A stretch of DNA of 64,000 nucleotides from an uncultured bacterium. Its GTDB lineage: Bacteria; Patescibacteriota; Minisyncoccia; Phycocordibacterales; PALSA-1337. The stretch is taken from positions 175,341 through 239,340 of the forward strand of contig CAWKEA010000005.1 of the NCBI GenBank assembly GCA_963848635.1, read 5' to 3'. The notes below the pieces were generated by a model. It made no database searches, was not told the DNA's origin, and saw only the letters and a program-made list of their open reading frames with translations. Positions 23,596 through 54,604 of this stretch are shown here, piece by piece; position 1 is the stretch's first letter, and each line of letters begins with the position of its first letter. A program made the position numbers and the translations under genes.

Positions 23596-23677
23596 GCCGG
23601 GATGGCGGAATTGGTAGACGCACACGACTCAAAATCGTGCGGAGCAATCCATGGGAGTTCGATTCTCCCTCCCGGCA
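23596..23677 (+). tRNA. tRNA-Leu(CAA)
   Basis: Manual fold: acceptor GCCGGGA/TCCCGGC, anticodon stem CACGA/TCGTG, loop CTCAAAA, long variable arm. CCA not encoded. Confidence 0.85.
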
Positions 23678-23999
23678 CATTATTTAACCACATACAGAGC
23701 ATTGCATAGCAATGCGGAGCGAGAATCGAAAGCCGGAGCAATGTTCCGAGCAGCAGCGAGGAACTGCGAGGCGTGGTCACGGAAATTTTCGAGCGACGGC
23801 GAGAAAATTATCTGTGACCGATTCTCCCTCCCGGCACATTGTTTAACCACATACAGAGCATTGCATAGCAATGCGGAGCGAGAATCGAAAGCCGGAGCAA
23901 TGTTCCGAGCAGCAGCGAGGAACTGCGAGGCGTGGTCACGGAAATTTTCGAGCGACGGCGAGAAAATTATCTGTGACCGATTCTCCCTCCCGGCACAAT
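23661..23999 (+). repeat. Two tandem 160-bp units, each ending in the 19-bp tRNA-Leu 3' end (gattctccctcccggcaca), plus a diverged third start
   Basis: Units at 23680-23839 and 23840-23999 are near-identical. The listed ORF 23651-24025 is just translation of this repeat. Confidence 0.85.
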
Positions 24000-24458
24000 A
24001 TATGACCACATACAGAGCATTGTGATGACGACACGGCAAGATGATCGAAAGTCGGAACACGCCAGGCCAAGCACGACGAGCCTGCGAGACAAGCGATCGG
24101 ATAAACAAAAAAGAATAAACTCTGGAAAAATTCCGAGCGGCAGTGACACAGCAAAAACCGCCCGAAGCCCTCGGGCAGTTTTTGAGCGGATCACTTTTTG
24201 ACGGCGCATCCACAGCTACATGTTCCGTCTTTTTCCTTGTGCTCGTGGCCGCAGGTTGGGCATGTTTTCATATGATATATAAAATTGCCTGATAAATTCG
24301 ACCCCGTGACGGCAGGCAGACGCTATAATACGGGTATGCCGATTAAAGCGATGCTCGACAACGTGATAAAAAAATTGCGTTGTATTGTTCAACGGCACGG
24401 TCAAAATGCATTGAAAAGAAAAACCGCCATGCGACGCACAGCGGCTGATATTTTGAAA

Positions 24459-24531
24459 GTGGACCCTACAGGTCTCGAACCTGCCACCTCCTCATTGCAA
24501 ATGAGGCGCTCTACCAGATGAGCTAAGGGCC
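24459..24531 (-). tRNA. tRNA-Ala(TGC)
   Basis: Manual fold on the reverse strand: acceptor GGGCCCT with the G3:U70 pair, anticodon loop TTTGCAA, T-arm GCAGG/CCTGT. Confidence 0.85.
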
Positions 24532-24620
24532 CTTTTATCGCAGACAGTACAGCTTACCTTGAAACGGCTATTTCTTCAAATTTTTTGGCGTCTTATCGAT
24601 AAACGACTGCTTTTACTGAA

Positions 24621-25640
24621 CTAAGCGACTGTTAAATCGATCAGGTGTTCGACAAGCTCCTTGACGGACGAACCGACTGCATTGAGCGCCTTTGGCACCA
24701 GCGATCCATCGGTCAGTCCCGGCAAAGAATTGGTTTCGAGCACGAAAATGCCGCGGCGGGGCGAGACGATGAAATCGGAGCGCGAATACTGCGAGAGCCC
24801 GAGGGCTGTATGCGCGATGATGGCGAGGCGCTCGAGCTCTTTTTTAATTGAAGAGGAAAACGTCGCAGGAACGATCTCTTGCGCCGCTTGACGAACGACT
24901 GCAGAAGCATCTTGTACGGATACATCGTTCTCGCCGCCATATTTATCGACATAGCCGAAGATATGCCCCTCGCTTTTGCGTATCTCGATCGGCGGCAAGG
25001 CATACATATCCTGGCCGCGGAAGCCTTTGATGACGCCGACGGTCGCTTCGATGCCGGGAATGAATTCTTCTATGATGACCGAGCCATGCTTTTTAAGAAT
25101 ATCTCTCAAGGCGCCCGCGAACTCCGCCCTGTCCGTCACGAGCGCGACGCCGAGAGACGAGCCTCCAGAAGCTGGCTTGATGACATAGGGCAAGGAGAAC
25201 TTTGAATGGACAAGAGCGAGAATCTTAGCAATATCGGGTTCTTTATCATCCGCCTTTTGAACGAGAACATGCAGAGGTGTTTTCAAACCTTCGCGCCGAT
25301 AGACTTCTTTGGCGACGTGCTTGGCCATCGTCATGGCAGATGAAAGCGAATCAGAACCGGTAAAAGGGATGCCGTGCGTCTCGAATAACTGCTGTATCTT
25401 GCCGTCTTCGCCATACGATCCGTGCAAAGCGTTGAAAACAGCATCGGCTCGCCGCAAAGCTGAATATGGCTTCACTTCAACGCCTTGAATATGCCAAGCA
25501 CCGCTCTTCGATATGTGGATATCCAATGGATCATACTTTTCCTTGTTTAAAGCGAGGAGCACTGCCGTGCCGGTTTTGAGCGATATATCATATTCGTCGC
25601 TCGGGCCGCCGCGCACCACGCCGATTCGAGTCTTTGTCAT
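24621..25640 (-). CDS. ddl: D-alanine--D-alanine ligase
   Basis: 'RIGVVRGGPSDEYDISL', ATP-grasp 'EEFIPGIEATVGVI', C-terminal 'LETNSLPGLT'. Confidence 0.9.
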   Translation of the reverse strand: MTKTRIGVVRGGPSDEYDISLKTGTAVLLALNKEKYDPLDIHISKSGAWHIQGVEVKPYSALRRADAVFNALHGSYGEDGKIQQLFETHGIPFTGSDSLSSAMTMAKHVAKEVYRREGLKTPLHVLVQKADDKEPDIAKILALVHSKFSLPYVIKPASGGSSLGVALVTDRAEFAGALRDILKKHGSVIIEEFIPGIEATVGVIKGFRGQDMYALPPIEIRKSEGHIFGYVDKYGGENDVSVQDASAVVRQAAQEIVPATFSSSIKKELERLAIIAHTALGLSQYSRSDFIVSPRRGIFVLETNSLPGLTDGSLVPKALNAVGSSVKELVEHLIDLTVA

Positions 25641-25800
25641 GCGATAATTGTAGCAATTTTCTGAACAATTAAAAAGGCGATCTTTAAAAAGAGGCTGATA
25701 TCTGCAAAAACTTCTAAAAAGGAAAAGATACGAATTGTGTCCGACCCACCTTGCACTGCCTCATTTTGGTGATAATTCTAGTTGCGATTTAATCGCATCT

Positions 25801-25860
25801 AGATTGCGAATGTTAGCCGTGTAATTAAAAACAGTTGCGACTGAGTCGCAACTAAAAATA
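25801..25860. repeat. Palindrome-bearing element gttagcc..AGTTGCGACTGAGTCGCAACT, homologous to 36601-36660
   Basis: Perfect 10-bp arms here. The copy at 36575-36660 has the same layout and is also followed by a CCCCG..CGGGG hairpin. Confidence 0.6.
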
Positions 25861-25958
25861 ATCGAAAAACAACCTCCTCCCCGCAGTTCCTGCGGGGTTT
25901 CCTGGAAAAGAAAAACCGCCCGACACATATGAGTGTAGGGCGGCGTCGAGATTGTGCG

Positions 25959-26366
25959 CTAGCGCTTATTTGCGACGTGAACGAAGTAGCCGTTCGTTAT
26001 AGACAGCTCTCGAGCAGCTTTTATGATGACCCAGCTATCAGACCAATTGCCGTAACTGCCATCCATATACGTATAAACGTTGACGATCGGTTGGTTCGTA
26101 GCTGTCTCGTTCTGGATGAACGATGAGAGCTCGCCATTTGCATTCGTGTGTGCGTCGCTGATGTAATACCACCCGTCTGTCAGATGGACAGGTTCACTTG
26201 AGTTGATCCCCTTTTCGGCGATGACGTGAAGCATGGCAGTCAAAGGATCTCCAGCTGTCAGCTGTGCCTCTTCGACATGAGGAATCAGTAAGGCGGCAGT
26301 TATTGAGATTAAGGCAATCACGATCAACAATTCGCTAAATGAGAATCCGCCATTTTTCGTCTTCAT
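25959..26366 (-). CDS. Type IV pilin-like protein (prepilin N-terminal methylation motif)
   Basis: 'GGFSFSELLIVIALISITAALLIP' is a class III signal plus a hydrophobic pilin helix. Confidence 0.7.
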   Translation of the reverse strand: MKTKNGGFSFSELLIVIALISITAALLIPHVEEAQLTAGDPLTAMLHVIAEKGINSSEPVHLTDGWYYISDAHTNANGELSSFIQNETATNQPIVNVYTYMDGSYGNWSDSWVIIKAARELSITNGYFVHVANKR

Positions 26367-26498
26367 AAGTTCCTTTCAATGTTCGTGTCATTCGAAGCTC
26401 TGTTGAGCGGTTGGAGGTGGAGTGACGCACCTTTACTTTAACTTATAATATAATACATATTCATAGTATATATGTCAAGATGCCGTCAATTTCGATTT

Positions 26499-27860
26499 TC
26501 ATTTTAAAAAATTCCTCTTACGAAGGTTCTTGTGATAGAGAACGGCAAAACGATGCGCTTCGCTGTTGGCAAGGATGATCGCGCGTTTGTAGCCAGCGAG
26601 CAGAGCCGGATTCTTGGCAGTCAACGATTCATCGGCAAGGATGCCGCGTGCCTTATGCTTGTCGTCCTTGACCAAGGCGACCGCCATGATGTCTGATTTG
26701 AGCTCCGACAGGACTTTCTGGGCAACATTGAGCTGGATCTGGCCTCCATCGACGACGATAAGCGACGGGTACGGCCACTCTGGATGGCCGAGGCGGCGCA
26801 AGAGCACTTCGCGGAGGGCCGCCGCGTCGTCGTTCTTTTCCTTTGATATCTTGAACTTCCGATACTCATTCTTGTTCGGCTCGCCTCCTTCGACAACCGT
26901 CATGACGCCGACGACGTTCTTGCCGGAGAGATGCGCGATATCGTAGGCTTCGATGCGGAACCGGCCGTGATTGCCCGCCAAACCTGCAGTCCTGTCGTCT
27001 TTTATGAGAGCGACATCCTCGATGTGCTCGAGCGCGTAAATAGTATGTTTGACCTTGTCTGCCTTCTCGAATTCCTGATCTTTTGCGTGCGCCATCATCT
27101 CCTTTTTCAGATTTTTGACGATCATCGCCTTCTTGCCGTCGAGAAACAGCCTGATATTCTTGATCGTCTTTAGATACTCGTCGTGCGAAGCAGAGCCGCC
27201 AAGGATGGGAGAAAGGCCGATCGAAGCATAGAACGAGCGATGCTTGGGGTCGAGGGACTTCTCGTCGAGATAGGGAAAGATGCGGCGGATGATCTTGAGG
27301 GCGTCGCGCAAAAGACCACCTGCGGGATAGGGGCCGAAGACCTTTGGCCTAAGGTTCGAGCTTCGCGACGGAAGAGTCTCAGGAGCACGAACAATTTCCT
27401 GCTGGAAATTTTCTCCCACTCGCGCCGTCGAGGCTCTAAGGCTCCTTCGATCTCTTCCGATCGCTTCGCTCTCAACTTTTCTTGATTTCTCAAGGTTCCT
27501 TCCCCGTTCAACGATCACGCGCGGCCATTCTTCGCCGGTGATGACGATATAGTTCCAGCTTTTGTCGTCTTTCTCGTCGGTGTTGTACTTCGGCTGGTAT
27601 TTCTTTATCAGATTGGCTTCAAGGATTATCGCCTCGAGGACAGAATCGGTCTTTTCAAAAGCGACTGTTTTGGCGCGCGTGACCATATCGACGATGCGCG
27701 ACCCGCGGGTGCTTATGACGTCGTCGCTGAAATAGCTCCGGACACGGCTGCGCAATGACGTGGCGCGGCCGATATACAGAGTCCTTCCTTTTGAATCCTT
27801 GAAGAAATAGACGCCCGGGACATCGGGCAGATTCAGTTTTCGCAATCCTCGGATTTTCAT
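26499..27860 (-). CDS. uvrC: Excinuclease ABC subunit C (short form: GIY-YIG plus RNase H-like domain, no HhH)
   Basis: 'GVYFFKDSKGRTLYIGRATSLRSRVRSY' GIY-YIG, 'EAYDIAHLSG' nuclease motif. In-frame insertion 'ESEAIGRDRRSL...' shares a 24-nt repeat with topA. Confidence 0.85.
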   Translation of the reverse strand: MKIRGLRKLNLPDVPGVYFFKDSKGRTLYIGRATSLRSRVRSYFSDDVISTRGSRIVDMVTRAKTVAFEKTDSVLEAIILEANLIKKYQPKYNTDEKDDKSWNYIVITGEEWPRVIVERGRNLEKSRKVESEAIGRDRRSLRASTARVGENFQQEIVRAPETLPSRSSNLRPKVFGPYPAGGLLRDALKIIRRIFPYLDEKSLDPKHRSFYASIGLSPILGGSASHDEYLKTIKNIRLFLDGKKAMIVKNLKKEMMAHAKDQEFEKADKVKHTIYALEHIEDVALIKDDRTAGLAGNHGRFRIEAYDIAHLSGKNVVGVMTVVEGGEPNKNEYRKFKISKEKNDDAAALREVLLRRLGHPEWPYPSLIVVDGGQIQLNVAQKVLSELKSDIMAVALVKDDKHKARGILADESLTAKNPALLAGYKRAIILANSEAHRFAVLYHKNLRKRNFLK

Positions 27861-27862
27861 GG

Positions 27863-30514
27863 CTATTTTTTCTTCAGCTTTTTCTTCAGATACATCCCAG
27901 TATAGCTCTTTTCATTCCGCGCGACGTCTTCCGGTGTTCCCTTTGCCACTATCTTGCCGCCATGCTTGCCGCCGAGGGGACCGATGTCGATGACGTAGTC
28001 GGCGTTTTTGACGAGGTCGAGATTGTGCTCGATGACGACGACAGTGTTCCCTTTGTCGACCAGCCTCTGCAAGATCTCAATGAGCTTCTTGACGTCTTCA
28101 TAATGAAGGCCGACCGTCGGTTCGTCGAGCAAGTAGATCGTCTTTTGGATATGTGCGCGATACAGCTCGGCGGAGATCTTGACGCGCTGGGCCTCGCCGC
28201 CAGAGAGCGTGGTCGCGCTCTGGCCGAGCGTCAGGTAGCCGAGGCCGACCTCGTTGAGCGTGAGCAAGCGGTCGGAAATGGCCGGGATGTCTTCGAAGAA
28301 GCTCATAGCTTCCTCGACGGTCATCTGGAGGACTTCGTGGATGTTCTTGCCTTTGTAATCGATGTCGAGGGTCTCTTTCATGAATCGAGTGCCGCCGCAG
28401 ACGTCGCACGGCACATAGACGGTCGGAAGAAAATGCATCTCGACGGCTATCTCGCCGTTGCCTTCGCAGGCTTCGCATCGTCCGCCTGGGCGGTTAAAGG
28501 AAAAACGCCCCGGGCCCCAGCCTCGGGCGCGGGCTTCGGAGCTAGCGGCGAACATGTCGCGGATATGCGACCATGCGCCGGTATAGGTGGCCGGGTTGCT
28601 CCGCGGCGTGCGGCCGATCGGCGACTGATCGATCAGAATGGATCGACCGAGATATTCCGATCCTGAAAACGAATCGGCGTTGTAGGTCAAGGAATTCCGC
28701 TTGCTCCTTTCGAGACGCGCTTCGAGGTTCTTGTGCAGGATCTCGTACATGAACGACGACTTGCCGGAACCGGAAACGCCGGTGATGACATTGAAGACGC
28801 CGAGCGGCACGTCCACATTCATGTCTTTGATATTGAAAATATTCCCGCCGCGTATCATGATCTTGCCTTTCGGCTCGCGGCGCTTGTTCGGCGTATCGAT
28901 CTCCATTTCCCCGCGCAGATAGGCAAGCGTGATCGATTCCTTGCCTTCGCCTTTTGCAAGAGTCTTTTTGGTCAAGAGGTCTTCAAGCCAGCCCGATACG
29001 ACGACTCTGCCGCCATGGATGCCTGCGCCCGGGCCTATGTCGATGATATAGTCCGAAGCATACATGGTGTCCTCGTCATGTTCGACGACGATGATGGTAT
29101 TGCCGAGGTCGCGCAGGTCGAGAAGGGTGCTGATGAGCCGATCATTGTCGCGCTGATGGAGCCCGATGGTCGGCTCATCGAGGACGTAGAGCGCGCCGAC
29201 AAGACCGGACCCAAGCTGTGAGGCAAGGCGTATGCGCTGGGCTTCCCCGCCGGATAACGTGTTGGCGCGTCGGTCGAGCGTCAAATATTCGATGCCGACG
29301 TTTATCATGAACGATAGCCTCGAGCCGATCTCTTTCATGACCACTTTTGCGATCTCTTTTTCCGTCGGCGTGAGCGTCAGATGATCGAAAAAATTCGCAG
29401 CCTCAGTGATAGACAGCGCGGTCGTCTCGACGATATTCTTGCCGTCCACAAGCACATGCAATGCCTCCTCGCGCAGTCGTTTTCCTCCGCACATCTCGCA
29501 TGGGTCGTCGCTGAAAAAGTCCTTGGTGCCGAGGCCTTTGCAGGCAGGACAGGCGCCGTACGGCGAGTTGAACGAGAAGAGACGCGGCTCGATCTCGGGA
29601 TATGAAAAACCGTCATGCGGGCACATGAATTTGACGGACATGAGCTTCTCTTCATCTGGAAATTCGACTTTGATCAGGCCGCTCGCTTCGGTGACGGAAC
29701 GCTCGAGCGCTTCGGACAGGCGTTCGCGCGAATTCTTCGAGTCATTCTTGTCCCGAAGCTCACTCGAGAATATCTCATCGATGAGGATGTCGATGTCGTG
29801 CTTTTTGTTCTTTTCTATGATGATCTGGTCTCTCAGATGGTATGTCGTCCCGTCGACGCGCACGCGATCGTAGCCTTTGCCGAGCAAGTCATACAGCAAC
29901 TGATAGTATTCTCCTTTTCTGCCGACGACGACCGGCGCCCAGATGCGGATCTTTTCATCGGAGATCGTGACGCCCATGATCTTCTTGTCCGCCGCCTTTT
30001 CGCTTTTATCTATGCTTTTTGCTTTATGCCTCCCGCTTTCTGCCTTTCCTGCTTGACCCAAGACTATCTCGAGTATCTCTTCCTTTGATATACGATGTAT
30101 CTCCCTATTGCAGACGAGGCAATGCGGCGTCCCCACGCGGGCAAAGAGGATGCGCATGTAGTCGTATATCTCGGTGATGGTGGCGACGGTCGAACGCGGA
30201 TTGTTGGAGCGCGATTTCTGGTCGATGGAAATGGCGGGAGACAAGCCGATGATCTCGTCGACGTCGGGCTTTTGCATTCGATGCAGGAATTGCCGGGCGT
30301 ATGCCGAGAGCGACTCGACATAGCGCCGCTGGCCCTCGGCAAAGATCGTGTCGAATGCGAGCGACGATTTCCCAGAACCGGACAGACCGGTGATGGCTAT
30401 CATCCGATTGCGCGGCATCTCGACGGTGATGTTTTTCAGATTGTGCGTGCGCGCGCCTTTGACGATTATCTTGTCGTCAAACGGTCCCGCGCCTTTCTTT
30501 TCGTGAGCATGCAT
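27863..30514 (-). CDS. uvrA: Excinuclease ABC subunit A
   Basis: Two ABC ATPase modules ('[12 protein letters not shown]', '[10 protein letters not shown]') and zinc-finger cysteines. 883 aa. Confidence 0.9.
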
Positions 30515-30576
30515 CGTGGCGCGGATTATAGCAGATATTTTACAAAAAAGGAAGGATATTTTATCCTATCTCCCGG

Positions 30577-31350: not shown

Positions 31351-31458
31351 GTGTAGTATCAAGCAGAGAAATGATACCACGGCGACTTCGATCGGACAAC
31401 CAACAGAAAAGCGCGCCGACGGGTGTCTTCATGAAGCGCTTCATGATATAATGTGGGC

Positions 31459-33218: not shown

Positions 33219-33241
33219 GCGATTATGATTAGACGCCCAGT

Positions 33242-42543: not shown

Positions 42544-43221
42544 TTATATATTCTTGAACCGTTCAATCGTCTCGACGACATTCTCGCTCTCGAATATTGC
42601 CGAACCGATAATGAGGCGGTCTGCGCCGGCGGCGCGCAAAAGCGGCGCTGTTTCGAGATTGACGCCGCCGTCGATCTGGATTTCAAGATCCGGATATTTT
42701 TCCTTCGCTTCTTTTATCTTTGCGATGACTTTTTCATCGAAAGACTGACCTTGGAAACCGACGTTATCTATGCCCATGAGTTGGATGTATTTTATAGTGC
42801 ATTCGCGTATCTTGTCTTTGTATCTTTCAAGAACGTCGATCGGCGTGTCGATGTTCAAAGCCAGCCCTATCTCTACTTTTCCTAATAGTTTTTCAATAGC
42901 GTCCGCTATATTTCCCTTGGCTTCAGTGTGAAGCACGATGCGAGAGGCTCCAGCAGCGACATATGTCAAGATGTCATCTTGACAGTTATTCACCATCAGA
43001 TCGAACTCGTATTCGATTTCTTCCCAATATGGCATGCCACGATCCTCATGCGCAATGGCTTCAAAATTCGCGTCGGGCTTTTTATACGGCCAGCTGGGTG
43101 ACGGCGTGAATTGCCCGTCGCAGATGTCGATTTGGACAAGAGGAACGAGGCCTTTGACTCGAGCGACGTGCTCCTCGAGGTCGGCAAAGTCTTTTGGAAG
43201 GATGGCGGGAATTATTTCCAT
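42544..43221 (-). CDS. rpe: Ribulose-phosphate 3-epimerase-like protein
   Basis: TIM-barrel 'IPAILPKDFADLEEHV...VQIDICDGQF' and C-terminal 'IQIDGGVNLETAPLLRAAGADRLIIGSAIF'. Contains a REP palindrome in frame. Confidence 0.7.
   Translation of the reverse strand: MEIIPAILPKDFADLEEHVARVKGLVPLVQIDICDGQFTPSPSWPYKKPDANFEAIAHEDRGMPYWEEIEYEFDLMVNNCQDDILTYVAAGASRIVLHTEAKGNIADAIEKLLGKVEIGLALNIDTPIDVLERYKDKIRECTIKYIQLMGIDNVGFQGQSFDEKVIAKIKEAKEKYPDLEIQIDGGVNLETAPLLRAAGADRLIIGSAIFESENVVETIERFKNI
42964..42984. repeat. REP-like palindrome TGTCAAGATGTCATCTTGACA inside the rpe CDS
   Basis: Perfect 10-bp arms. Confidence 0.8.
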
Positions 43222-47482: not shown

Positions 47483-48775
47483 ATGTCACTATTCACAAAA
47501 GTAAAAGACAAGATAACCCACAAGGAAGGAGAAGCCGAAAGCCAAAAGCTTAAAACAGAAAGCAGAGAAGAGACAAAGAAAGACAAAGCAGACGAGCCGA
47601 CAGCGGCGGCCGATGAAAGATCGACTGAAAAAGCGCCGAAAGCGGCCAAGACGAAGAAACCCGCATCGAAAGACACGAAAGCCGCAGATGACGCGGCAAA
47701 GGCAAAAGCCGCGACGATGATGGGCAAGCTTTTGACGGAGTCGAAAACTCCCCCATCAGAAGGCGACATCATCGAGGGTCCCGTCATCAATATCGACAAG
47801 ACCGCCGTATATGTCGACCTTGCTCCGTTCGGAACCGGCATCATTTTCGGCAAGGAATTCCTGACCGCGCGCGACATCATACGGAACATAAATGTCGGCG
47901 ACACCGTAGCGGCAAAGATCGTCGGCTCGGACAATGAAGACGGCTACATCGAGCTCTCTCTCAAGGAAGCCCGCCAAGCGATCATCTGGAGCGAGGCGGA
48001 GACAGCGATCAAAAATCGCACGATCCTCAACCTGCCAGTCACGGAAGCCAACAAAGGCGGCCTCATCATACAATGGCAAGGCATATCGGGCTTTTTGCCT
48101 GCTTCCCAGCTGAAACCAGACCACTATCCGCGCGTGGCTGACGGCGACAAGGAAAAGATCTTCGATGAGCTGAAGAAGCTCGTCGGCAAGAATCTGTCGG
48201 TAGCCATCATCACCGCCAGTCCAAAGGAGGGCAAGCTCATCTTCTCGGAAAAGAGCCCCGGCGAGAAAGACAAGGAAAAGATGACCGGCAAATATGCTGT
48301 CGGCGACGAGATAGAGGGCGAAGTGACCGGCGTCGTCGATTTCGGCGCTTTCGTCAAGATCGAAGACAATCTGGAAGGCCTCGTCCACATCTCCGAGATC
48401 GATTGGTCTCTCGTCGAGAATCCGAATGCGTACGTCAAAGTCGGACAAAAGATCCGGGCCAAGATAATCGACATCAAGGACGGCAAGATCTCGCTCTCGC
48501 TCAAGGCCCTCAAGGAGAACCCATGGGTCGAAGCGGCAAAGAAATACAAGAAAGACATGAAAGTCGACGGCGTCATCATCAAATTCAACAAGCATGGCGC
48601 GCTCGCCTCGATCGAAGAAGGCGTGGCAGGCCTCGTCCATGTCTCGGAATTCGGCTCCGAGGAAAAGCTCCGAAAGAACCTCGAACTCGGCAAAGTCTAT
48701 CCGTTCAAGATAACCGTCTTCGATGCCAAGGAGCAAAAGATGGCCTTGTCGTTCGCAGGGAAAAAATCTATCTAA
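47483..48775 (+). CDS. rpsA: S1 RNA-binding domain protein (ribosomal protein S1-like, four S1 repeats) with ~85-aa K/A/E-rich N-terminal extension
   Basis: Repeated 'G..V.G.V..I...GAFVKI..LEGLVHISEI' S1 motifs. Confidence 0.8.
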   Translation: MSLFTKVKDKITHKEGEAESQKLKTESREETKKDKADEPTAAADERSTEKAPKAAKTKKPASKDTKAADDAAKAKAATMMGKLLTESKTPPSEGDIIEGPVINIDKTAVYVDLAPFGTGIIFGKEFLTARDIIRNINVGDTVAAKIVGSDNEDGYIELSLKEARQAIIWSEAETAIKNRTILNLPVTEANKGGLIIQWQGISGFLPASQLKPDHYPRVADGDKEKIFDELKKLVGKNLSVAIITASPKEGKLIFSEKSPGEKDKEKMTGKYAVGDEIEGEVTGVVDFGAFVKIEDNLEGLVHISEIDWSLVENPNAYVKVGQKIRAKIIDIKDGKISLSLKALKENPWVEAAKKYKKDMKVDGVIIKFNKHGALASIEEGVAGLVHVSEFGSEEKLRKNLELGKVYPFKITVFDAKEQKMALSFAGKKSI

Positions 48776-48863
48776 ATTTCGCGAGAACTCGTCTGGAATT
48801 TTTGAAGCAAATCATAAACAAAAACTGCCGATCCATGGGCAGTTTTTTGTTGCGCAGTCGTAA

Positions 48864-48941
48864 TGGTGCCGAGGACCAGGATCCCAGACGCAGGCTGTGC
48901 CTGCTATCGGTAACTTACTATCGGTGCCGAGGACCAGGATC
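48864..48941. repeat. Direct duplication of the tRNA-Phe 3' end (ggtgccgaggaccaggatc) ~40 bp apart
   Basis: Copies at 48864-48882 and 48923-48941. Inter-copy segment holds a GCAGGC-aca-GCCTGC hairpin. Confidence 0.8.
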
Positions 48942-48997
48942 GAACTGGTGACCCTTCCCTCTTCAGGGGAATGCTCTACCAACTGAGCTACCTCGGC
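48925..48997 (-). tRNA. tRNA-Phe(GAA)
   Basis: Reverse-strand fold: GCCGAGG acceptor, loop CTGAAGA, T-arm CCAGTTCGATCCTGG. Confidence 0.85.
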
Positions 48998-49013
48998 GTA
49001 TTGTATTTTACTG

Positions 49014-49325
49014 TTATTGCGATTGATACTGTTTCAGCGCGTTCTGAAGCTCCTGACCGAATGATTGGCTTTGACCCGTACTGCTTCCACCGCTCGTCTG
49101 ACTGCCGGATAAACTGCTCACATCTCCGAGGGCGCCCGTCAACGAATTGATATATGGCTGGATAAAGTAGAATGCGCCGAAAGTCAGCCCTATGATGAGC
49201 ACCCAATACAAAATTTGAAAAGTAGATTGCCAGCGCGCAGAGCGTCGCATCGATTTCAAGAGCTTGTTGTTCTCTTCGGTCAAGGCGGCGGTACGCTCCA
49301 GCAATGATCTTTCTTCGGGTGTCAT
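49014..49325 (-). CDS. Hypothetical small membrane protein with Ser/Gly-rich tail
   Basis: 104 aa from the internal ATG (MTPEERSLLERTAAL...). One TM helix. Confidence 0.45.
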   Translation of the reverse strand: MTPEERSLLERTAALTEENNKLLKSMRRSARWQSTFQILYWVLIIGLTFGAFYFIQPYINSLTGALGDVSSLSGSQTSGGSSTGQSQSFGQELQNALKQYQSQ

Positions 49326-49362
49326 GAGAAATAGTCTAGCAAAAGTCGTGCAAAAAGGCCAC

Positions 49363-50744
49363 TTAGGCCAAGGTGCTACCTTGACCATACGCCGCTGCCT
49401 CGCCTCCTGCAACGTAGCCCGTCGTCCAGCAGAGCTGTAGAGAATAGCCGCCGGATGGACGGTTGATATGCAAAAGGTCGCCCGTGACGAACAGGTTGTC
49501 CACGACTTTCGACGCACACGTGCGCATATCGATCTCATCGAGCGCGACGCCGCCGTCGGAAACGACGGCGCGATCATTGCCCATGAGGCCGGTGATCGTG
49601 ACAGGCAAAGCTTTGAGGAGCCGGACGAGCGTCTTGCGCTCATCACGGGTGATGCTGTGGACTTTTGTTGCAAGGTCGATCGTGCCGGATCGTCCTTTAT
49701 CATCTCCAATATGCGCATCAAAACTTTCGACTAATATCTCGACGCCTTTCGCCATGCCGGCAGGCAGGATATCGCCGAGCACGTTCTTGAGCATCTTATT
49801 CTTGTTCTGATCGAATACTGCGACGACCCTTTTCTCAAAGGTTCCGAGGTCTTCGGCAGGAAAAAGATCGATGCTCGCTGTCACCGCGCCGGACTTCAAA
49901 AGATCGGATACTTTTTTCGCGCTGTTGAGGATAAGAGGGCCCGAAAGGCCGAAATGGGTAAAAAGCAGGCGGCCTTTCTTTGAAAAGGATTTGACCCCGT
50001 CGACAAAAAAAGCTATCTTCATGTCTTCGACGGAAATACCGGCCATCTTTTTGATCCAAGCGTCGCTCACTGAGAGAGGCACGATCGAGGGAGTCGGGTC
50101 TACGACCGTATGCCCTAGTTTTCGAAGCCAGCCAAAGCCGTCGCCTGTCGAGCCAGTTTCCTTGTGCGATGCGCCGCCTGTGGCAAAAATGAACGATCTT
50201 CCATAATATTCCGTTGTGCCGCATGCGACGGAAATGATCCGGCTTTCCCGCTTTTCTTGCACGTCTGCCCTTCGCCTTCTTCCGCGTCTCGCTCATTTTG
50301 AGAGCTTAAAATATCATCGCAATTCACTCGTGTCACCGCCGAGCTTGTCTTGACTATCACTCCGCCGCCGCGCACATATCTTTCAAGGACGTCATAGACA
50401 TCTGTGGCCTTCTGGCTCTTTGGAAACGCTCGCTTGCGCTCTTCGATCACGAGGGGCAAGCCGCGCGACTCAAAGAACGAGAACGTCTCCGCGATGCCGA
50501 ATCTCGAAAATATCGAGAATAGAAATTTTCCAGCCGGGCCATAATGAGCAAGGAGCGCATGCACGTCATATTCTGCATTGGTGATGTTGCAACGGCCTCC
50601 GCCGGTTATCTTGAGCTTCTCGCCCATCTTTGAATTCTTTTCGAGGATAAGGACCCGAGCGCCGATCTCGGCCGCTCGCCCTGCGGCCATCAATCCCGAT
50701 GCGCCTCCTCCGACGACGATGACGTCATAGATGTCTTTGCTCAT
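49363..50744 (-). pseudogene. HI0933-family FAD-dependent flavoprotein interrupted by a frameshift
   Basis: N-terminal frame 'YDVIVVGGGASGLMAAGRAAE...GGGRCNITN'. C-terminal frame 'FIFATGGASHKETGSTGDGFGWL...'. Frames overlap at 50115-50262. Confidence 0.6.
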
Positions 50745-50747
50745 ATG

Positions 50748-50820
50748 TGCCCCCACCAGGAATCGGACCTGGATCTTTTCCTTAGGACGGAATCGTTCTA
50801 TCCATTGAACTACAGGGGCG
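50748..50820 (-). tRNA. tRNA-Arg(CCT)
   Basis: Reverse-strand fold: acceptor GCCCCTG/TGGGGGC (two G-U pairs), D-stem GTTC/GAAC, loop GTCCTAA, T-arm CCAGG/CCTGG. One A-A mismatch at the anticodon-stem base. Confidence 0.6.
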
Positions 50821-50905
50821 AATTCGACTGCGGTCGAATTCGTGCCGGTAGTAGCAACTACCGGCCATGTAAATTAACCGCTGTGCTCATTTATCTATTA
50901 TCTTT

Positions 50906-51138
50906 TTACTTCCCGAGCGCAGCCGCGATGGCTTTCTCATCAAAGCCGACGATGACTGTTTCGCCGATCAGATGACCGGCACGCCCAACTGGCCGGTCTT
51001 GTCGACCATCTCCTTTCGCCTCACTTCGTCAGAGGCGACGTTGTATTCAGTGAAAGCGACGTTGTTCTTCGTGAAATAGTCCTTTGCGGCCTTGCAATAG
51101 GTGCAGGTAGGGGTTGAATATATGGTTATTGATGGCAT
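50906..51138 (-). pseudogene. Glutaredoxin/NrdH-like small redoxin with a frameshift after 'GVPVI'
   Basis: 'MPSITIYSTPTCTYCKAAKDYF...QLGVPVI' then TGA. The next frame gives 'IGETVIVGFDEKAIAAALGK'. Length is not a multiple of 3. Confidence 0.5.
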
Positions 51139-51458
51139 GATGTGGTTTGATTATTATGGCAAGCGAGGATCATGTGATTGCTTGCAAGCACAATGTCCGA
51201 GCGCAGTCATAAGAAAGTATTCTTTATGCGGTTAATTCGTCAGAGAAAGTATAGCACAAATCGATAATGGACCGGAAGCGGCGAACATGACAAACGAACA
51301 TGTTCTAGCTTTGAACCACATCTTCTGTGCCACATAGCCATCGCGATTGATAGAGATACTCTAATCAGAGTACGGGATCGATTGCTATATTTCATTCATC
51401 TTGTTATCATTCTACTGCTCAATAGAGTCATTTTTCGCTTCAATCAAAACACTAATTC

Positions 51459-54377
51459 ATGTTCATTCCCACAAAGAAACTAAAGAGGGTCTTGATTCCA
51501 GCTATCATTTTTTTTGCAGGCATATTTTCATTTATAAATCACGCGCATGCCGCACTCATCAATGCAAGCGCGGTCTTGGGCCAAGGCGGCAGTTATACCA
51601 CCGACACCGCAAACTACCCTTCGGGTAGCGTCACCCCTTATGGATTAAGCCAAACATGGAGCGTTGCTCTCGATACAGTCAATAATCGCCTGTTCGTTTC
51701 AGACTCTGGCAACAACCGCATCCTCGTCTACCCTCTTGATAGCTCCAACAATCTGACGACAACGACCCCGAGCTACGTTCTCGGTTCTTGCAACTTTACG
51801 GCTGCTGGCGCCGGCGGCGTGTCATCGACTACTTTTAGCGCAGGCGATTGGGTTAATGTAGAGTATGATTATACCAATTCTCGTCTCTTTGTTTCAGATG
51901 GCAATCATAACCGAGTACTTGGTTTCAATGTCGCAACTTCGACCATCAGCAACTGCGAGCCCGCTTCGTTCGTCGTAGGCCAAGGAAGCTTCACTTCATC
52001 TACTGCCACAACGACGCAAAACGGCCTTAACGGTCCTGATGACATGTTTTATGATCCGATAAATGGACGTTTATTTGTGTCTGATAACCCTAACAATCGC
52101 GTGATGGCCTTTAGCGTTCCCGCAAACGCCACGAGCAGTATCAACGGCGAAAACGCTATCTTTGAACTCGGTCAATCGAGCTTTTCTGGGAAAGCTACCG
52201 GCCTGTCGCAGAGCGGCCTCAATGGACCAAACGGTCTGTCGTATGATTATGTGAATTCACGCCTATTCGTCTCTGACGGCAACAATAATCGCGTGATGGC
52301 CTTTAGCGTTCCCGCAAACGCCACGAGCAGTATCAACGGCGAAAACGCTATCTTTGAACTCGGTCAGCCGGATTTTAACACAGGCACTGCTGCTACGACG
52401 CAATCAGGATTGAATCTCTCCGATGACAGCGACTGGGATTCGACGGCGAACCGTCTTTTTGTCGCCGATGCCCTAAATGCAAGGATCGTTATTTTCAATG
52501 TTCCCAACAATGCCACGAGCAGTATCAACGGCGAAAATGCTGAACAGAATATAGGTCAATCGAATTGGACGAACAAGACTGCCGGCACCGCGCAAAATCA
52601 GTTTACCTATGTCGAATCTCCTCATGCATATGATCCTGTCAATAATAAATTCTGGACATATGAATGGACGAGGAACCGCGTTCTCGAATTCAGTATGATA
52701 AAGATCACGACTGCTTCGCTCCCTTCCGCTACCGTCGGCAGTCTGTATTCTCAGACCCTCATCTCGACTTCTTCCCAAGGGACGGTCACGTGGAACCTCG
52801 CGAGCACATCCTCAAGCCTTCCCGCCGGTCTTTCCTTGAACTCTTCCACGGGAGTGATTTCAGGGACACCCACTGTCATCGGCAGTTACCCGGTGACTAT
52901 CGAAGCGGATGATAATTACACGACGGGCCCTTTCTTCTATCGACAAAATTATACGATTCAAGTCAATGCTGCGTATCCAACCGTCATTCTCACTGCAGGC
53001 CTCGCCACGTCATCCATAACTCAGACATCAGTGATCTTGAACGCTACTACAACATCGACCGGAGGCGCTTCCACCACCATCGAAGGCTTCAATATCGGCA
53101 CGACGACGAGCTATGGCACGGTAGCATCGACATCCGGAACTTTTGGTATAGGTCCTTTTTCTCAATCAGTCAGCGGTTTAACGTGCGGTACGATTTATAA
53201 TTTCCAAGCGTTTGCAACAAACTCCGGCGGAACAGGTACTTCCTCCAATATGACATTCACTACCAATCCCTGCACCTACACCCTCAGCTACGCCGCCGGA
53301 ACGAACGGCACGATATCAGGATCCTCGACCCAAGTGGTGTCGAGCGGCTCAAGCGGCAGTCCTGTCACCGCCGTGGCCAACTCCGGCTATCATTTCGTCA
53401 GCTGGTCCGACGCTTCGACCACGAATCCCCGCACCGACGCGAACGTAGCCGGCAATGTGACGGTGACGGCGAGCTTCGCTACGACCACCTACACCCTCAG
53501 CTACGCCGCCGGAACGAACGGCACGATATCAGGATCCTCGACCCAAGTGGTGTCGAGCGGCTCAAGCGGCAGTCCTGTCACCGCCGTGGCCAACTCCGGC
53601 TATCATTTCGTCAGCTGGTCCGACGCTTCGACCACGAATCCCCGCACCGACGCGAACGTAGCCGGCAATGTGACGGTGACGGCGAGCTTCGCTACGACCA
53701 CCTACACCCTCAGCTACGCCGCCGGAACGAACGGCACGATATCAGGATCCTCGACCCAAGTGGTGTCGAGCGGCTCAAGCGGCAGTCCTGTCACCGCCGT
53801 GGCCAACTCCGGCTATCATTTCGTCAGCTGGTCCGACGCTTCGACCACGAATCCCCGCACCGACGCGAACGTAGCCGGCAATGTGACGGTGACGGCGAGC
53901 TTCGCTGTGACAGATGTCACGGCACAGCAACAACAAACAACCGCTCCGAGCGTCTCATCCTCTGGCGGTTCGATCTCTGCGTCGGCTTTAGCTTCGATCC
54001 TCGCTCCAAGCCCCGCAACGACCGCCTATCTTGATTCTCTTGAAAAGCAAACTTCCAATTGTCCTCCCGGATTCATGTGCGCGCCGCTTGCAACGGCTAC
54101 GAGCACCTATCCGTCACCTATGGTTCTCCCGCTTGCCTTCACTCGGGACCTGACCATCGGTTCGATCGGCTCTGACGTAAAAGCACTCCAAATATACCTG
54201 AATCGTCACGGATCTATCCTCGCTCAGACAGGCCCCGGCTCTCCCGGGGATGAAACCGCATCCTTCGGCGTCCTCACCAGATCCGCTCTTGCCAGACTCC
54301 AGAGAGCAGATGACATATCGCCGTCCATCGGATATTTTGGCACGATCACGAGAAATTATATTCTGAAGCATCCATAA
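51459..54377 (+). CDS. Large secreted surface protein: NHL-like repeats, Ig-like domain, three identical 71-aa bacterial repeat units, C-terminal peptidoglycan-binding domain
   Basis: Signal/TM 'VLIPAIIFFAGIFSFINHAHA'. 'NNRILVY/NHNRVLGF/NNRVMAF' NHL-type blades. 'YTLSYAAGTNGTISGSS...GYHFVSWSD' x3. 'VKALQIYLNRHGSILAQTG' PG_binding_1. Confidence 0.8.
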   Translation: MFIPTKKLKRVLIPAIIFFAGIFSFINHAHAALINASAVLGQGGSYTTDTANYPSGSVTPYGLSQTWSVALDTVNNRLFVSDSGNNRILVYPLDSSNNLTTTTPSYVLGSCNFTAAGAGGVSSTTFSAGDWVNVEYDYTNSRLFVSDGNHNRVLGFNVATSTISNCEPASFVVGQGSFTSSTATTTQNGLNGPDDMFYDPINGRLFVSDNPNNRVMAFSVPANATSSINGENAIFELGQSSFSGKATGLSQSGLNGPNGLSYDYVNSRLFVSDGNNNRVMAFSVPANATSSINGENAIFELGQPDFNTGTAATTQSGLNLSDDSDWDSTANRLFVADALNARIVIFNVPNNATSSINGENAEQNIGQSNWTNKTAGTAQNQFTYVESPHAYDPVNNKFWTYEWTRNRVLEFSMIKITTASLPSATVGSLYSQTLISTSSQGTVTWNLASTSSSLPAGLSLNSSTGVISGTPTVIGSYPVTIEADDNYTTGPFFYRQNYTIQVNAAYPTVILTAGLATSSITQTSVILNATTTSTGGASTTIEGFNIGTTTSYGTVASTSGTFGIGPFSQSVSGLTCGTIYNFQAFATNSGGTGTSSNMTFTTNPCTYTLSYAAGTNGTISGSSTQVVSSGSSGSPVTAVANSGYHFVSWSDASTTNPRTDANVAGNVTVTASFATTTYTLSYAAGTNGTISGSSTQVVSSGSSGSPVTAVANSGYHFVSWSDASTTNPRTDANVAGNVTVTASFATTTYTLSYAAGTNGTISGSSTQVVSSGSSGSPVTAVANSGYHFVSWSDASTTNPRTDANVAGNVTVTASFAVTDVTAQQQQTTAPSVSSSGGSISASALASILAPSPATTAYLDSLEKQTSNCPPGFMCAPLATATSTYPSPMVLPLAFTRDLTIGSIGSDVKALQIYLNRHGSILAQTGPGSPGDETASFGVLTRSALARLQRADDISPSIGYFGTITRNYILKHP
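53273..53903 (+). repeat. Three tandem 213-bp units, identical at nucleotide level, within the surface-protein gene
   Basis: Unit starts at 53273, 53486 and 53699. The third is truncated. Confidence 0.85.
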
Positions 54378-54430
54378 AAGACATTGGGTCATTTGGCAAT
54401 TGATTCGGTATTTGGCGGTACTAATGATTA

Positions 54431-54604
54431 TGTGCGAGATGCGGGAATCGGTCACAGGTCTCGCCGTGCTCGGCTCGCCCGCGACCCCGCCTCGCTCGCC
54501 TTCGCTCGCTCCGGCTTTCGATTCTCCCATCATCGTCGCAATGATGCTTCGTTCGAACAGCCCCCGGCCGTTCTCACGAATCATTGTGCGAGATGCGGGA
54601 ATCG
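54431..54604. repeat. Duplicated tRNA-Gly 3' end (tgtgcgagatgcgggaatcg) enclosing a ~135-bp mini-element homologous to the tRNA-Leu-associated unit
   Basis: Copies at 54431-54450 and 54585-54604. The element shares 'gagaatcgaaagccggagc' and the terminal 'ggcgaga..ctgtgacc' with the 23680-23839 unit. Confidence 0.75.

Follow-up and report, generated by a model that had tools for sequence, protein, structure and literature searches.

The 64,000-nucleotide stretch of DNA analyzed here (the window) contains six tRNA genes, which were identified with ARAGORN and Rfam. Three of them, encoding tRNA-Leu, tRNA-Gly, and tRNA-Phe, are followed by exact 19–20-nt repeats of their own 3′ ends, as an earlier note on this DNA had claimed. 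An exact repeat of this length within 160 nt of three of the six tRNAs is far beyond chance. No 3′-end duplicate was found behind tRNA-Ala, tRNA-Ser, or tRNA-Arg of the window.

The intact tRNA-Leu(CAA) gene (23596-23678, plus strand; ARAGORN and Rfam) supplies the repeated segment, X, which consists of its last 19 nt from G57 of the T-loop (23661-23679). It is followed on the same strand by a 140-nt element (unit 1, 23680-23819; 87.3 bits with the covariance model) composed of a spacer hairpin (23680-23715), an inverted arm X′ (GGAGCGAGAATCGAA, 23716-23730), and a conserved three-way-junction core ending with GTGACC at 23819. The predicted fold of this unit has an energy of −59.7 kcal/mol (z = −5.6). 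A second X, copied directly from tRNA-Leu G57 to ACA (23820-23838), leads into unit 2 (23839-23978; 87.3 bits), which is 99% identical to unit 1 and ends at a third X of the same extent (23979-23997). Two tandem units had been described before, but the period assigned to them, 160 bp, is 159 bp when measured (23660-23818 and 23819-23977, 99% identical). Both units end in CGATTCTCCCTCCCGGCACA, a copy of tRNA-Leu that runs from C56/G57 in the T-loop to two bases beyond the discriminator. The two units differ at one base, and the same element recurs in L058, an independent contig from a metagenome with synteny on both sides; both observations argue against an assembly artefact. Unit 3, which the earlier note missed, is a degenerate older copy (23998-24152; about 23978-24150) with a model match at 24028-24110 (18.8 bits, E = 0.064) and a decayed terminal tRNA-end copy. 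A terminator-like hairpin with a T-run (about 24156-24186, plus strand) closes the array of tRNA-Leu and its elements.

The intact tRNA-Gly(CCC) gene lies on the minus strand (54586-54657; X = 54603-54585). Its 135-nt element (54450-54584, minus strand; 89.2 bits) has a spacer, an inverted arm (GATGGGAGAATCGAA), and a core that also ends with GTGACC, and is followed by an exact direct copy of the tRNA from G57 to ACA (GATTCCCGCATCTCGCACA, 54431-54449, minus strand). This inverted arm is exactly complementary to the end of a tRNA of the Gly(UCC) type. The homology of the Leu and Gly inserts noticed earlier holds: both are strong model matches and belong to one family. The window contains three occurrences of the 19-mer GAGAATCGAAAGCCGGAGC, compared with 0.04 expected, and CTGTGACCGATTC is present in three exact copies. 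The T-arm look-alike that had been seen opposite the 19-mer is explained by the reverse complement of the tRNA T-loop and the 3′ strand of the T-stem. The inverted tRNA-end copy within the element had been overlooked.

The tRNA-Phe(GAA) gene (48923-48997, minus strand; X = 48941-48923) ends with ACC followed by G, and does not have a full CCA. The 39-nt insert behind it (48884-48922, minus strand) contains a hairpin (GCAGGCACAGCCTGC, 48904-48890), then GTC and CUGGGAUC, which pairs with GAUCCUGG of tRNA-Phe. The conserved core is absent from the insert, and the covariance model gave no match there. An exact 19-nt copy of G57-C75 (48883-48865) with A76 follows (48864-48883, minus strand), giving a full CCA with a terminator next to it. 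Insert-free tRNA-Phe sites in L008 and L012 consist of the tRNA with CCA and the terminator. The duplicate at tRNA-Phe reported earlier is real, and the architecture suggests that the insert is probably a relic of the same class of element with a deleted core. The downstream copy probably represents the original 3′ end of the gene.

Distribution of the family

A scan of 185,579 species genomes with the 19-mer yielded 44 loci. Forty of them belong to Patescibacteria (CPR) and all have strong or moderate scores with the covariance model, so that the unit has further copies beyond the window, across a range that the earlier note had not recognized. The other four are from other phyla, have weak or no model scores, and are about as many as expected by chance. 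The model found 61 strong or moderate copies in the 40 loci and the window, a sample that is biased because its loci were picked via the 19-mer. Fifty-five of these copies are located 5–90 nt 3′ of a tRNA or tmRNA on the same strand, or in tandem behind another copy. Twelve RNA identities host copies, and the orientation of the element is always that of the tRNA. The core is conserved across deep Patescibacteria lineages and is absent from viral contigs. The same bracket architecture is also used by other, unrelated cores, and other partial tRNA duplications are present in these genomes. Rfam 15 has no match to the element, and a literature search found no paper describing the family. Therefore, these folded elements of about 100–170 nt behind tRNAs across Patescibacteria are apparently undescribed.

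Pfam searches of nearly all window ORFs of at least 120 aa revealed no integrase, transposase, reverse transcriptase, or Cas1, while ComEC, DprA, and RecR are encoded in the window. No recombinase gene was found adjoining an element, and the analysis revealed neither a helper enzyme nor any transposition intermediate or excision junction.

Architecture and boundaries

Each unit is ordered as the tRNA 3′ end (X), a spacer with a variable hairpin, X′, the core with its two variable hairpins, and a second X. X corresponds to tRNA G57-C74, and X′ is its reverse complement extending back to T54. The first base of X comes directly after G53-TTC56, in the middle of the palindromic TCGA of the T-loop, and G57 is the start even with TTCGAAT or TTCGAGT T-loops. 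Where CCA follows the downstream X, identity to the gene copy stops at C74 (C75 in tRNA-Phe), and the native flank begins beyond this point. Such a CCA is present on seven of the 36 downstream X copies where the gene copy does not have it; conversely, in five cases the gene copy has CCA and the downstream copy lacks it or is decayed. The CCA and flank patterns in these seven of 36 cases point to a target duplication of about 18 nt.

The downstream X always matches the type of the local tRNA, including in elements whose X′ is of another tRNA's type (the window Gly, L014 Glu, and L018 Gly elements); a target duplication therefore agrees better with this pattern than an unchanging attP brought by the element. 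A foreign-looking X occurs inconsistently, in the downstream copy in L013 and in the copy inside the tRNA at tRNA-Arg of L018 and L023. X′ tracks the complement of the tRNA 3′ strand via G·U pairs (e.g., L018 Arg and the window Phe), and in L023 Arg, which has a C6·A67 mismatch, X′ has T. Because X′ follows the complement of the 3′ strand and not the 5′ strand of the tRNA, the unit does not represent a tRNA copy that has decayed. Several top-scoring units (L003, L038, and L026) have a downstream X whose acceptor part has degenerated. A terminator-like hairpin lies between the tRNA and the core in 17 of the 52 units, and a terminator often follows the downstream X.

Conserved fold

On the tRNA-sense strand, X′ is predicted to pair with X and to close the core into a three-way junction, two arms of which vary in length. 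The fold is the conserved feature of the elements. Paired cells amounted to 92%, compared with 72% in shuffles, and double changes were found in 19 of the 27 pairs. Covariation was strong, with a score of 0.474, in contrast to 0.134 in shuffles (0 of 500) and about 0.06 for slid partners. One G·U pair is kept in 44 of the 54 sequences. G·U and U·G pairs (79) exceed A·C and C·A pairs (13), a balance that fits only the tRNA-sense strand, and folding is also better on this strand than on the antisense one. Besides G·T, the fold tolerates tandem G·A pairs, and apical loops of the types GC-GAA-GC, GC-GCA-GC, and GC-ATA-GC recur in it. Loops of these types are classic stable DNA mini-hairpins.

Variation among close relatives

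The tRNA-Leu site is empty in L054 and L051, and has a partial unit in L052 (whose ParB protein is the same as that of L051), one unit in L050, one full and one truncated unit in L058, and two units and a decayed one in the window. In the relatives, tRNA-Leu is a hot spot for variable genes, including a Schlafen-like gene in L051; only one comparison between an empty and a filled site is clean, and none with the same downstream flank was found. The flanks of L018 and L023 are nearly identical wherever both are present, but the elements that the two carry behind tRNA-Arg and tRNA-Gly show no relationship in detail, and tRNA-Arg itself differs in its acceptor 3′ strand. Near-identical copies, with internal segments that match exactly, were found behind different tRNAs of a single genome, and the distal units of tandem arrays are decayed or truncated.

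Discussion

We consider it somewhat probable (about 0.55) that the units are small, gene-less, non-autonomous insertion cassettes of about 100–170 nt that depend on their structure and reside in the 3′ tails of Patescibacteria tRNAs and tmRNAs. The term non-autonomous tRNA-targeting element used in the earlier note is a fair description of these multi-copy, gene-less units, which are gained, lost, and exchanged among close relatives. A cassette would enter the tRNA tail and duplicate the local G57-C74, leaving the original end of the gene as the downstream X. Arrays may then grow, shrink, and homogenize through unequal recombination between X repeats. Cores may pass between tRNA loci and genomes via recombination or template switching, anchored by the X repeats and the near-universal, partly palindromic T-loop (TTCGA), and natural transformation may assist this movement with the ComEC and DprA encoded in the window. 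Because the fold is conserved, a partner acting in trans is implied, which may be a nuclease or recombinase that handles the folded single strand, or else the enzymes of tRNA processing, which would work on a read-through transcript. For an RNA as the active form, the terminator-like hairpins in 17 of the 52 units argue against efficient co-transcription. Conservation of the core in deep lineages could reflect a host-useful function instead of selfish spread.

Such a function is central to a rather unlikely alternative, in which the unit is a host-serving noncoding RNA module that is co-transcribed with the tRNA and spreads only by ordinary duplication and recombination. The X′:X helix would mimic the acceptor/T minihelix for RNase P, RNase Z, and the CCA-adding enzyme, and the outcome would be either the release of a stable small RNA (about 120 nt) or a 3′-processing signal for the tRNA. 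The earlier suggestion of small RNAs co-processed with the tRNA is still alive in this form, since the conserved fold, with its covariation and G·U pairs, is specific to the tRNA-sense strand. The invariant orientation, the frequent terminator after the downstream X, the tracking of the 3′-strand complement by X′, and the deep conservation of the core also agree with it. However, the decayed acceptor parts in L003, L038, and L026 indicate that mimicry is not required, and the terminator-like hairpins before the cores, the truncated, decayed, or absent copies at the same tRNA in close relatives, the cassettes swapped between nearly identical genomes, and the bracket architecture shared by unrelated cores do not favor a module of this kind.

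It is improbable that the unit is a single-stranded DNA mobile element resembling CTX phage, integron attC sites, or IS200/IS605. Its sense strand would be excised or become accessible, as a circle or on the lagging-strand template, and would fold so that X:X′ rebuilds the duplex 3′ end of the tRNA gene, and the hairpin arms would be recognized in trans by an Xer-like recombinase or an HUH/Y1 enzyme. The need for inverted and direct target copies would follow from a folded attachment site, and the strand-specific fold tolerating G·T and tandem G·A pairs, the recurrent apical loops, the tandem arrays, and the start of X at the centre of TCGA are all consistent with it. However, no HUH, Xer-like, or integrase gene lies near the examined elements in the window, no circle junction was seen, and an X′ of the wrong tRNA type would make the folded site mismatch its target. 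To our knowledge, no replicon or transposon circle as small as about 160 nt has been described before.

An intron-like or ribozyme element is highly improbable. X′ would be an internal guide to the T-loop and 3′ end of the tRNA, the core would catalyze cleavage or ligation at C56/G57, and DNA copies would arise via an RNA stage. The invariant T-loop complement in the guide-like X′, the junction fixed at C56/G57, the G·U pair adjoining the junction, and the seven of 36 downstream X copies with CCA can be read in this way, and tRNAs of Patescibacteria frequently contain group I introns (PMC13011429). However, an original gene end at the downstream X accounts for the CCA cases just as well, and the five gene copies with CCA show the reverse pattern. 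Moreover, no Rfam ribozyme or intron model matched, no reverse transcriptase was found among the window ORFs, and the upstream tRNA is intact, making splicing unnecessary.

A tRNA 3′ end repeated directly is the classic mark left by an integrase, as the earlier note pointed out, and the tRNA-Leu hot spot and the other partial tRNA duplications would suit attL/attR scars of integrase islands or prophages, or decayed tandem tRNA copies. No evidence for a tyrosine integrase was found among the scanned ORFs of the window. Such origins, or an assembly artefact, can scarcely be right, because X′ follows the 3′-strand complement (as in L023 Arg), the array is reproduced in L058, and deep lineages share a covarying core fold that viral contigs do not have.

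The cassettes share features with several known systems. Like tRNA-targeting integrative elements (tyrosine-integrase islands, prophages, and gene-less CIME derivatives of these), they are inserted at the 3′ part of a tRNA that stays intact, with a direct repeat from the T-loop and tandem arrays from serial insertions. However, the unit is only about 140 nt with no nearby integrase, one family occupies a dozen tRNAs with a repeat that is always of the local type, and an inverted tRNA-end copy and a conserved folded core are added. MITEs and the structured bacterial repeats Correia, RUP, ERIC, and REP/BIME are likewise short, gene-less, multi-copy, hairpin-forming, and strain-polymorphic, with terminal inverted repeats comparable to X′ and X. 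In contrast to these, the inverted ends reproduce the target tRNA instead of being fixed transposon ends, the duplication of about 18 nt is set by tRNA positions, and location and orientation are strict; we know of no parent IS. Cas1-type integration generates long target duplications, some of them at tRNA 3′ ends. The likeness to CRISPR arrays and casposons may be regarded only as an analogy: identical short repeats (X) lie beside a leader-like gene, distal repeats are decayed, and the apparent target duplication is long, but the "spacers" are here repeated versions of a single folded element, homologous to one another, and no Cas1 was found. Sites folded as single-stranded DNA (CTX attP/XerCD, integron attC, and IS200/IS605 ends) also have strand-specific folds in which structure outweighs sequence, hairpins that could mimic a duplex target, and tandem arrays. 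However, no link of the elements to Xer, IntI, or TnpA was found, the target is the tRNA T-loop and 3′ end, and the fold is a three-way junction. The tRNA-like processing signals and RNAs derived from trailers (plant mitochondrial t-elements, mascRNA, and the E. coli 3′ETS-leuZ RNA) differ from the cassettes, which often retain the core although their acceptor mimicry has decayed, whose units are repeated, swapped, and lost, and whose core has no counterpart there; they are similarly placed inside a tRNA transcription unit, and many closing helices of the cassettes resemble an acceptor/T minihelix followed by a discriminator.

tRNA tails in the window

The window carries six tRNA genes, three of which are followed by a second copy of their own 3' end. 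Behind tRNA-Leu(CAA) (23596-23678, plus strand) lie two tandem units that are 99% identical and repeat every 159 bp. Each of them terminates in CGATTCTCCCTCCCGGCACA, a copy of tRNA-Leu that runs from T-loop C56/G57 to two bases beyond the discriminator. A third, diverged Leu unit has a decayed terminal copy, scores only 18.8 bits with the covariance model of the element, and precedes a terminator hairpin. The tail of tRNA-Gly(CCC) (54586-54657, minus strand) holds a 135-nt insert and then a perfect duplicate of the gene's final 19 nt, and that of tRNA-Phe (48923-48997, minus strand) a 39-nt insert and a perfect duplicate of G57-C75. The Leu and Gly inserts are 135-140 nt long. These direct copies confirm the duplicates that an earlier note had reported at tRNA-Leu, tRNA-Gly and tRNA-Phe. 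Its description of a Leu tandem of two units also stands, except that the period is not 160 bp and that the third unit had been overlooked. The remaining 3' flanks in the window, which the same note had proposed for inspection (tRNA-Ala, tRNA-Ser and tRNA-Arg), were checked and have no tail duplicate. An open reading frame that spans the Leu units (23651-24025) has no Pfam match and is not conserved.

Architecture of a unit

On the tRNA strand, a unit consists of the tRNA ending in X (its 3' segment from T-loop G57), a spacer, an inverted arm X', a core, and a direct copy of X. The spacer is variable, mostly a hairpin and at times terminator-like. X' is the reverse complement of the tRNA from T54 toward the 3' end, with a length of 8-20 nt, and in some units an extra hairpin is inserted precisely where its acceptor and T-stem parts meet. 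The first arm of the core reads AAA-GCC-GGA, a variable hairpin (V1), and GA-GGC-GG; the second arm reads GGUCGCG, another variable hairpin (V2), and yGUGACC, and is followed by the direct X copy. The unit has two conserved hairpin bases. X begins at G57 in all cases, directly after GTTC of the T-loop, and this holds for the T-loops TTCGAAT (tRNA-Arg of locus L023) and TTCGAGT (tRNA-Leu-UAA of L004) as well; the L numbers denote loci from other genomes, fetched by sequence scan or protein homology. A terminator-like hairpin lies ahead of the core in 17 of 52 units and after the downstream X in about a third of them.

A 19-mer shared by the Leu and Gly elements occurs three times in the window, against 0.04 copies expected. 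Its opposite strand had been said to look like a tRNA T-arm. The likeness is real, and it arises because the 19-mer joins the last bases of X' to the first bases of the core.

Unrelated cores lie within the same X'...X bracket in the first unit behind tRNA-Gly of L002 (880-996), behind tRNA-Asp of L007 (3990-4170), and behind tRNA-Leu-UAG of L011 (1975-2110). The shared bracket points to a superfamily, or else to a general mechanism that operates on tRNA tails.

Distribution in Patescibacteria

The earlier note had proposed a search of related genomes for further copies, and such copies were found. An exact scan with the 19-mer over one genome per species (185,579 species, 596 Gb) returned 44 loci, 40 of them from Patescibacteria (Saccharibacteria, Paceibacteria, Yonath-, Adler-, Campbell-, Vogel- and Falkowbacteria, Minisyncoccia, and unnamed MAGs). 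The other four loci, from other phyla, have weak or no covariance-model scores, and in 596 Gb any 19-mer should turn up by chance about four times. In nearly all true loci, the 19-mer lies 40-130 nt 3' of a tRNA on the same strand. The element is specific to Patescibacteria, where the window organism is also placed by its ParB and S1 homologues. A 17-mer scan of viral contigs gave four loci with no convincing model match (one was weak) and no tRNA.

A covariance model built on 15 element copies gave 65 matches at E-values up to 1 in the window and the 19-mer loci, of which 61 were strong or moderate. Fifty-five of these 61 are located 5-90 nt behind a tRNA or tmRNA on the same strand, or in tandem behind another unit. 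The upstream RNA genes are those for Gly (26), Arg (5), Leu (4), Pro (4), Glu (3), Ala (3), Cys (2), tmRNA (2), Met, Trp, His and Lys (1 each); one core family is found behind 11 tRNA identities plus tmRNA. An 8-kb Saccharibacteria locus (L018) alone holds five or six copies.

Fold of the element

RNAalifold predicted a three-way junction, with X' and X forming helix P1, and with P2 and P3 at the bases of V1 and V2, respectively. Covariation was examined in a model-based alignment of 54 distinct copies, which is biased towards the structure by having been fitted to the model. In this alignment, 92% of the cells are paired (72% in shuffles), 19 of 27 pairs have changes on both sides, and one G.U pair is conserved in 44 of the 54 copies. 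The covariation score is 0.474, against 0.134 for shuffled alignments (none of 500 reached 0.474) and approximately 0.06 with slid partners. In the MAFFT alignment made before model fitting, 12 of 27 pairs were compensated. No covariation was seen by eye for kissing between the loop of the extra hairpin and that of the second arm.

The window Leu unit folds at -59.7 kcal/mol (z -5.6) on the sense strand and -52.6 kcal/mol (z -4.0) on the antisense strand; the corresponding values for the Gly unit are -50.9 kcal/mol (z -3.6) and -38.9 kcal/mol (z -0.7). Over all helices, G.U and U.G pairs number 79, against 13 A.C and C.A. On the basis of these energies and the G.U excess, the constrained structure is that of the tRNA-sense strand, as RNA or single-stranded DNA. 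What is secure is that a conserved element, folded on the sense strand, lies between the tRNA 3' end and a displaced copy of that end, and that it carries an inverted copy too.

Two of the rival explanations concern a folded RNA or DNA. A secondary structure conserved on one strand with compensatory changes, as seen here, is the mark of a structured non-coding RNA, and the element may be a processed RNA that serves the host. Alternatively, it may be a single-stranded-DNA element whose fold mimics an attachment site. The helices often contain tandem G.A pairs, and apical loops of the types GC-GAA-GC and GC-GCA-GC are frequent. Such pairs and loops are known both in RNA and in stable DNA hairpins, and therefore they do not decide between RNA and DNA.

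Original end and copy

In seven cases (Met of L007, Arg of L009, Gly of L021, L025, L037 and L043, and Phe of the window), CCA comes after the downstream X and is absent after the gene copy. In all seven, the match between the two copies breaks off precisely at C74 (at C75 in Phe), and a native-looking flank follows. Insert-free tRNA-Phe sites in L008 and L012 have tRNA-CCA with a palindromic terminator directly after it, and they match the downstream X copy at the window tRNA-Phe. Given the stop at C74, the native flank and these two sites, the downstream X is best read as the original end of the gene, with G57-C74 as the duplicated segment. We rejected the idea that the downstream CCA proves an RNA intermediate, because the identity ends at C74 and native flank follows; the idea is further undercut by five gene copies that carry CCA where the downstream copy has none or is decayed.

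X matches the adjoining tRNA in about 30 cases, also in units whose X' belongs to another tRNA's type. For example, X' of the window Gly(CCC) unit exactly complements an end of the Gly(UCC) type, a tRNA-Glu unit of L014 has a Leu-type arm, and a tRNA-Gly unit of L018 has an Arg-type arm. As judged from these sequences, a local X with a foreign X' fits better with duplication of the local target than with an attP borne by the element. Exceptions to the local pattern are L013 and tRNA-Arg in L018 and L023. The apparent target duplication spans approximately 18 nt (G57-C74); alternatively, it could be read as a 3-nt duplication of CGA at the T-loop palindrome.

The 39-nt tRNA-Phe insert of the window has no core and no covariance-model match. 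It holds a hairpin resembling the extra hairpin of other units, followed by GUC and CUGGGAUC, which pairs with GAUCCUGG of the tRNA, two G.U pairs included. This X' remnant overlaps the downstream X at a palindromic GATC. We infer that the insert is a unit whose core was lost between two GATC copies, or possibly an unfilled site. A search through the S1 protein for an empty tRNA-Phe site in close relatives gave loci that are not syntenic and have no tRNA-Phe. Behind 103 other tRNAs, no core-less X'/X palindrome reaches 7 pairs, against 6 pairs at the window tRNA-Phe.

Gain, loss and exchange between relatives

The tRNA-Leu locus of relatives was recovered through the adjacent ParB gene (86-89% identity) and a DNA scan. 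The tail is empty in L054, where the next open reading frame begins 2 nt after ...GGCACA, and in L051. L052, with the same ParB protein as L051, has only the spacer, X' and the first arm. L050 contains one full unit before the contig ends within X. L058, which is syntenic with the window on both sides, contains one full unit with a core nearly that of the window and a truncated second unit. In L059, the tRNA end is the same and the spacer and arms are different. The window itself has two units and one decayed unit. The array is therefore real and variable, and the full and truncated units of the syntenic L058 answer the concern, raised in the earlier note, that the Leu tandem might be an assembly artefact. 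As L051 and L052 show, the tRNA tail is a hot spot that differs between strains. A Schlafen/AlbA_2-like gene lies just 3' of tRNA-Leu in L051 (681-1259), at the place of the partial element in L052.

Exchange is further supported by L018 and L023, which have nearly identical flanks where both are present and Arg and Gly tail elements that differ throughout. The acceptor 3' strand of tRNA-Arg also differs between these loci, and each version mismatches an identical 5' strand. Within L018, the 5' half, with its Arg-type X', is identical in the elements at Arg and Gly, and an identical long V2 occurs in two elements of one contig (L019 and L023). The element is clearly unstable over short evolutionary times.

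Exchange is also indicated in L029 (750-960, minus strand), where an intact element lies behind a decayed tRNA-Ala pseudogene and is approximately 97% identical to the L041 element over the first 130 nt. Some further arrangements were observed at these loci. Three tandem units of about 60 nt, each opening with the first ~11 nt of tRNA-Met, lie just upstream of an intact tRNA-Met in L007 (3480-3665), so tRNA 5' ends are partly duplicated too. Fragments of the 5' and 3' parts of tRNA-Pro (2744-2790 and 2968-3015) flank the intact gene in L018, beside an element at 3096-3196, as further forms of partial tRNA duplication.

Comparison with known elements

A guide-bearing ribozyme or an intron-like element is another rival, and the guide-like X' and conserved junction are the features that bear on it. 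Rfam 15, searched with gathering thresholds in the window and with E-values in the Leu region and eight loci, returned only tRNAs and spurious microRNA-like hairpins, and no covariance model of a known intron or ribozyme family matched the element. The junction strands do not fit the cores of the hammerhead, HDV, twister, hairpin, or group I/II types, as judged by eye and from the Rfam scans. The element does not interrupt a gene that needs splicing: the upstream tRNA is complete by both ARAGORN and the Rfam tRNA model. The literature on such an element yielded only the unrelated group I introns of Patescibacteria tRNAs, which sit at position 35/36 (PMC13011429).

The inserts are also distinct from decayed tandem tRNA copies, in which X' would represent the 5' strands of the tRNA. 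X' follows the complement of the 3' strand where the two strands differ: tRNA-Arg of L023 has a C6.A67 mismatch at which X' has T, and L018 is alike. In addition, the T-loop is represented in X' by its complement and not by its own sequence. The element differs from a MITE with fixed terminal inverted repeats related to an autonomous IS: its inverted ends X' and X vary with the tRNA, and no transposase was found in the window. As regards substrates of a single-strand (HUH) transposase, of the IS200/IS605 type or another, the observations are the two hairpin bases, the start of X directly after GTTC and no TnpA in the window.

Ordinary integrase scars or artefacts are the least likely explanation. 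A direct repeat of a tRNA 3' part that starts in a loop does resemble an att footprint, and the earlier note had called a duplicated tRNA 3' end the footprint of tyrosine-integrase insertion, although for these tiny inserts it suggested a non-autonomous element mobilised in trans or small RNAs co-processed with the tRNA. A footprint with one attB per lineage and its own fixed tRNA end fails on the 12 RNA identities and the local X. The Pfam search of nearly all window open reading frames of at least 120 aa detected no integrase (neither in nor beside the inserts), recombinase, transposase, reverse transcriptase, Cas1 or TnpA; it found housekeeping genes together with ComEC, DprA, RecR and pilin-like proteins.

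Possible mechanism and implications

In the mechanism that we prefer, a non-autonomous cassette would enter the tRNA tail and duplicate G57-C74, after which arrays would change by unequal recombination between the X repeats. Cores could travel between loci and genomes via recombination or template switching, with the near-universal, partly palindromic T-loop as the anchor, and the conserved fold would imply a trans-acting partner. Natural transformation is plausible for the window organism because ComEC, DprA, RecR and pilin-like proteins are encoded in the window.

We give roughly one chance in four to a new class of protein-less, guide-bearing mobile elements that extends across Patescibacteria. 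In such a class, X', in which the complement of the T-loop is invariant, would find the T-loop and 3' end of tRNA genes or transcripts by pairing, the three-way-junction core would be a new ribozyme or a scaffold for an RNA- or ssDNA-guided recombinase or nuclease, and the element would copy itself into the tRNA tail with an 18-nt duplication. We place the element among the small non-autonomous mobile elements, with a real chance, likewise about one in four, that its mechanism is new in kind.

Few mobile elements have been recognised in the tiny genomes of Patescibacteria, and few non-coding RNAs are known from them, yet many of their tRNA genes appear to bear this conserved folded cassette. 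A mobile cassette would rank among the smallest site-specific elements known, and its ends, being copies of the target, would point to targeting by base pairing or by a folded single strand. A functional RNA would instead represent a widespread unannotated class linked to tRNA expression in a major bacterial lineage. The cassette disrupts short-read assemblies at tRNA genes and yields false tRNA fragments. It is also a strain-level marker, and the covariance model can be used for annotation.

Other features of the window

An AT-rich 52-nt motif with the core TTTAGAATTATTTTAACTTTTCTTAAT occurs at 1109-1160, 18785-18836 and 58895-58946, directly upstream of ComEC (1172-3463), DprA (18835-19755) and an unknown open reading frame (58968-59573), respectively. 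It may be a common promoter or operator of competence genes. The near-perfect 20-bp palindrome GTCAAGATGnCATCTTGAC occurs six times (3482-3509, 9433-9460, 42964-42991, 58375-58402, 58850-58877 and 59555-59582), with three of the copies clustered around pilin-like genes, and may be an operator.

Three exact 213-bp tandem repeats (53273-53911) lie in the gene for a 972-aa surface protein with InlB B-repeat domains, and repeats of 714-720 bp (60022-61638) lie in that for a Laminin_G_3/pilin-like protein. Both sets are recent in-frame expansions of protein repeats. The gene for an HI0933-like flavoprotein is broken up into a pair of overlapping open reading frames (49363-50262 and 50115-50756, minus strand), the upstream one of which starts within a few bases of the tRNA-Arg 3' end; the break reflects a frameshift, pseudogene formation or a sequencing error. 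The region 8578-8952 encodes a member of the 23S_rRNA_IVP (bAvd-like) family, and a bAvd gene is also present on a relative's contig (L057), which hints at diversity-generating retroelements in this lineage.
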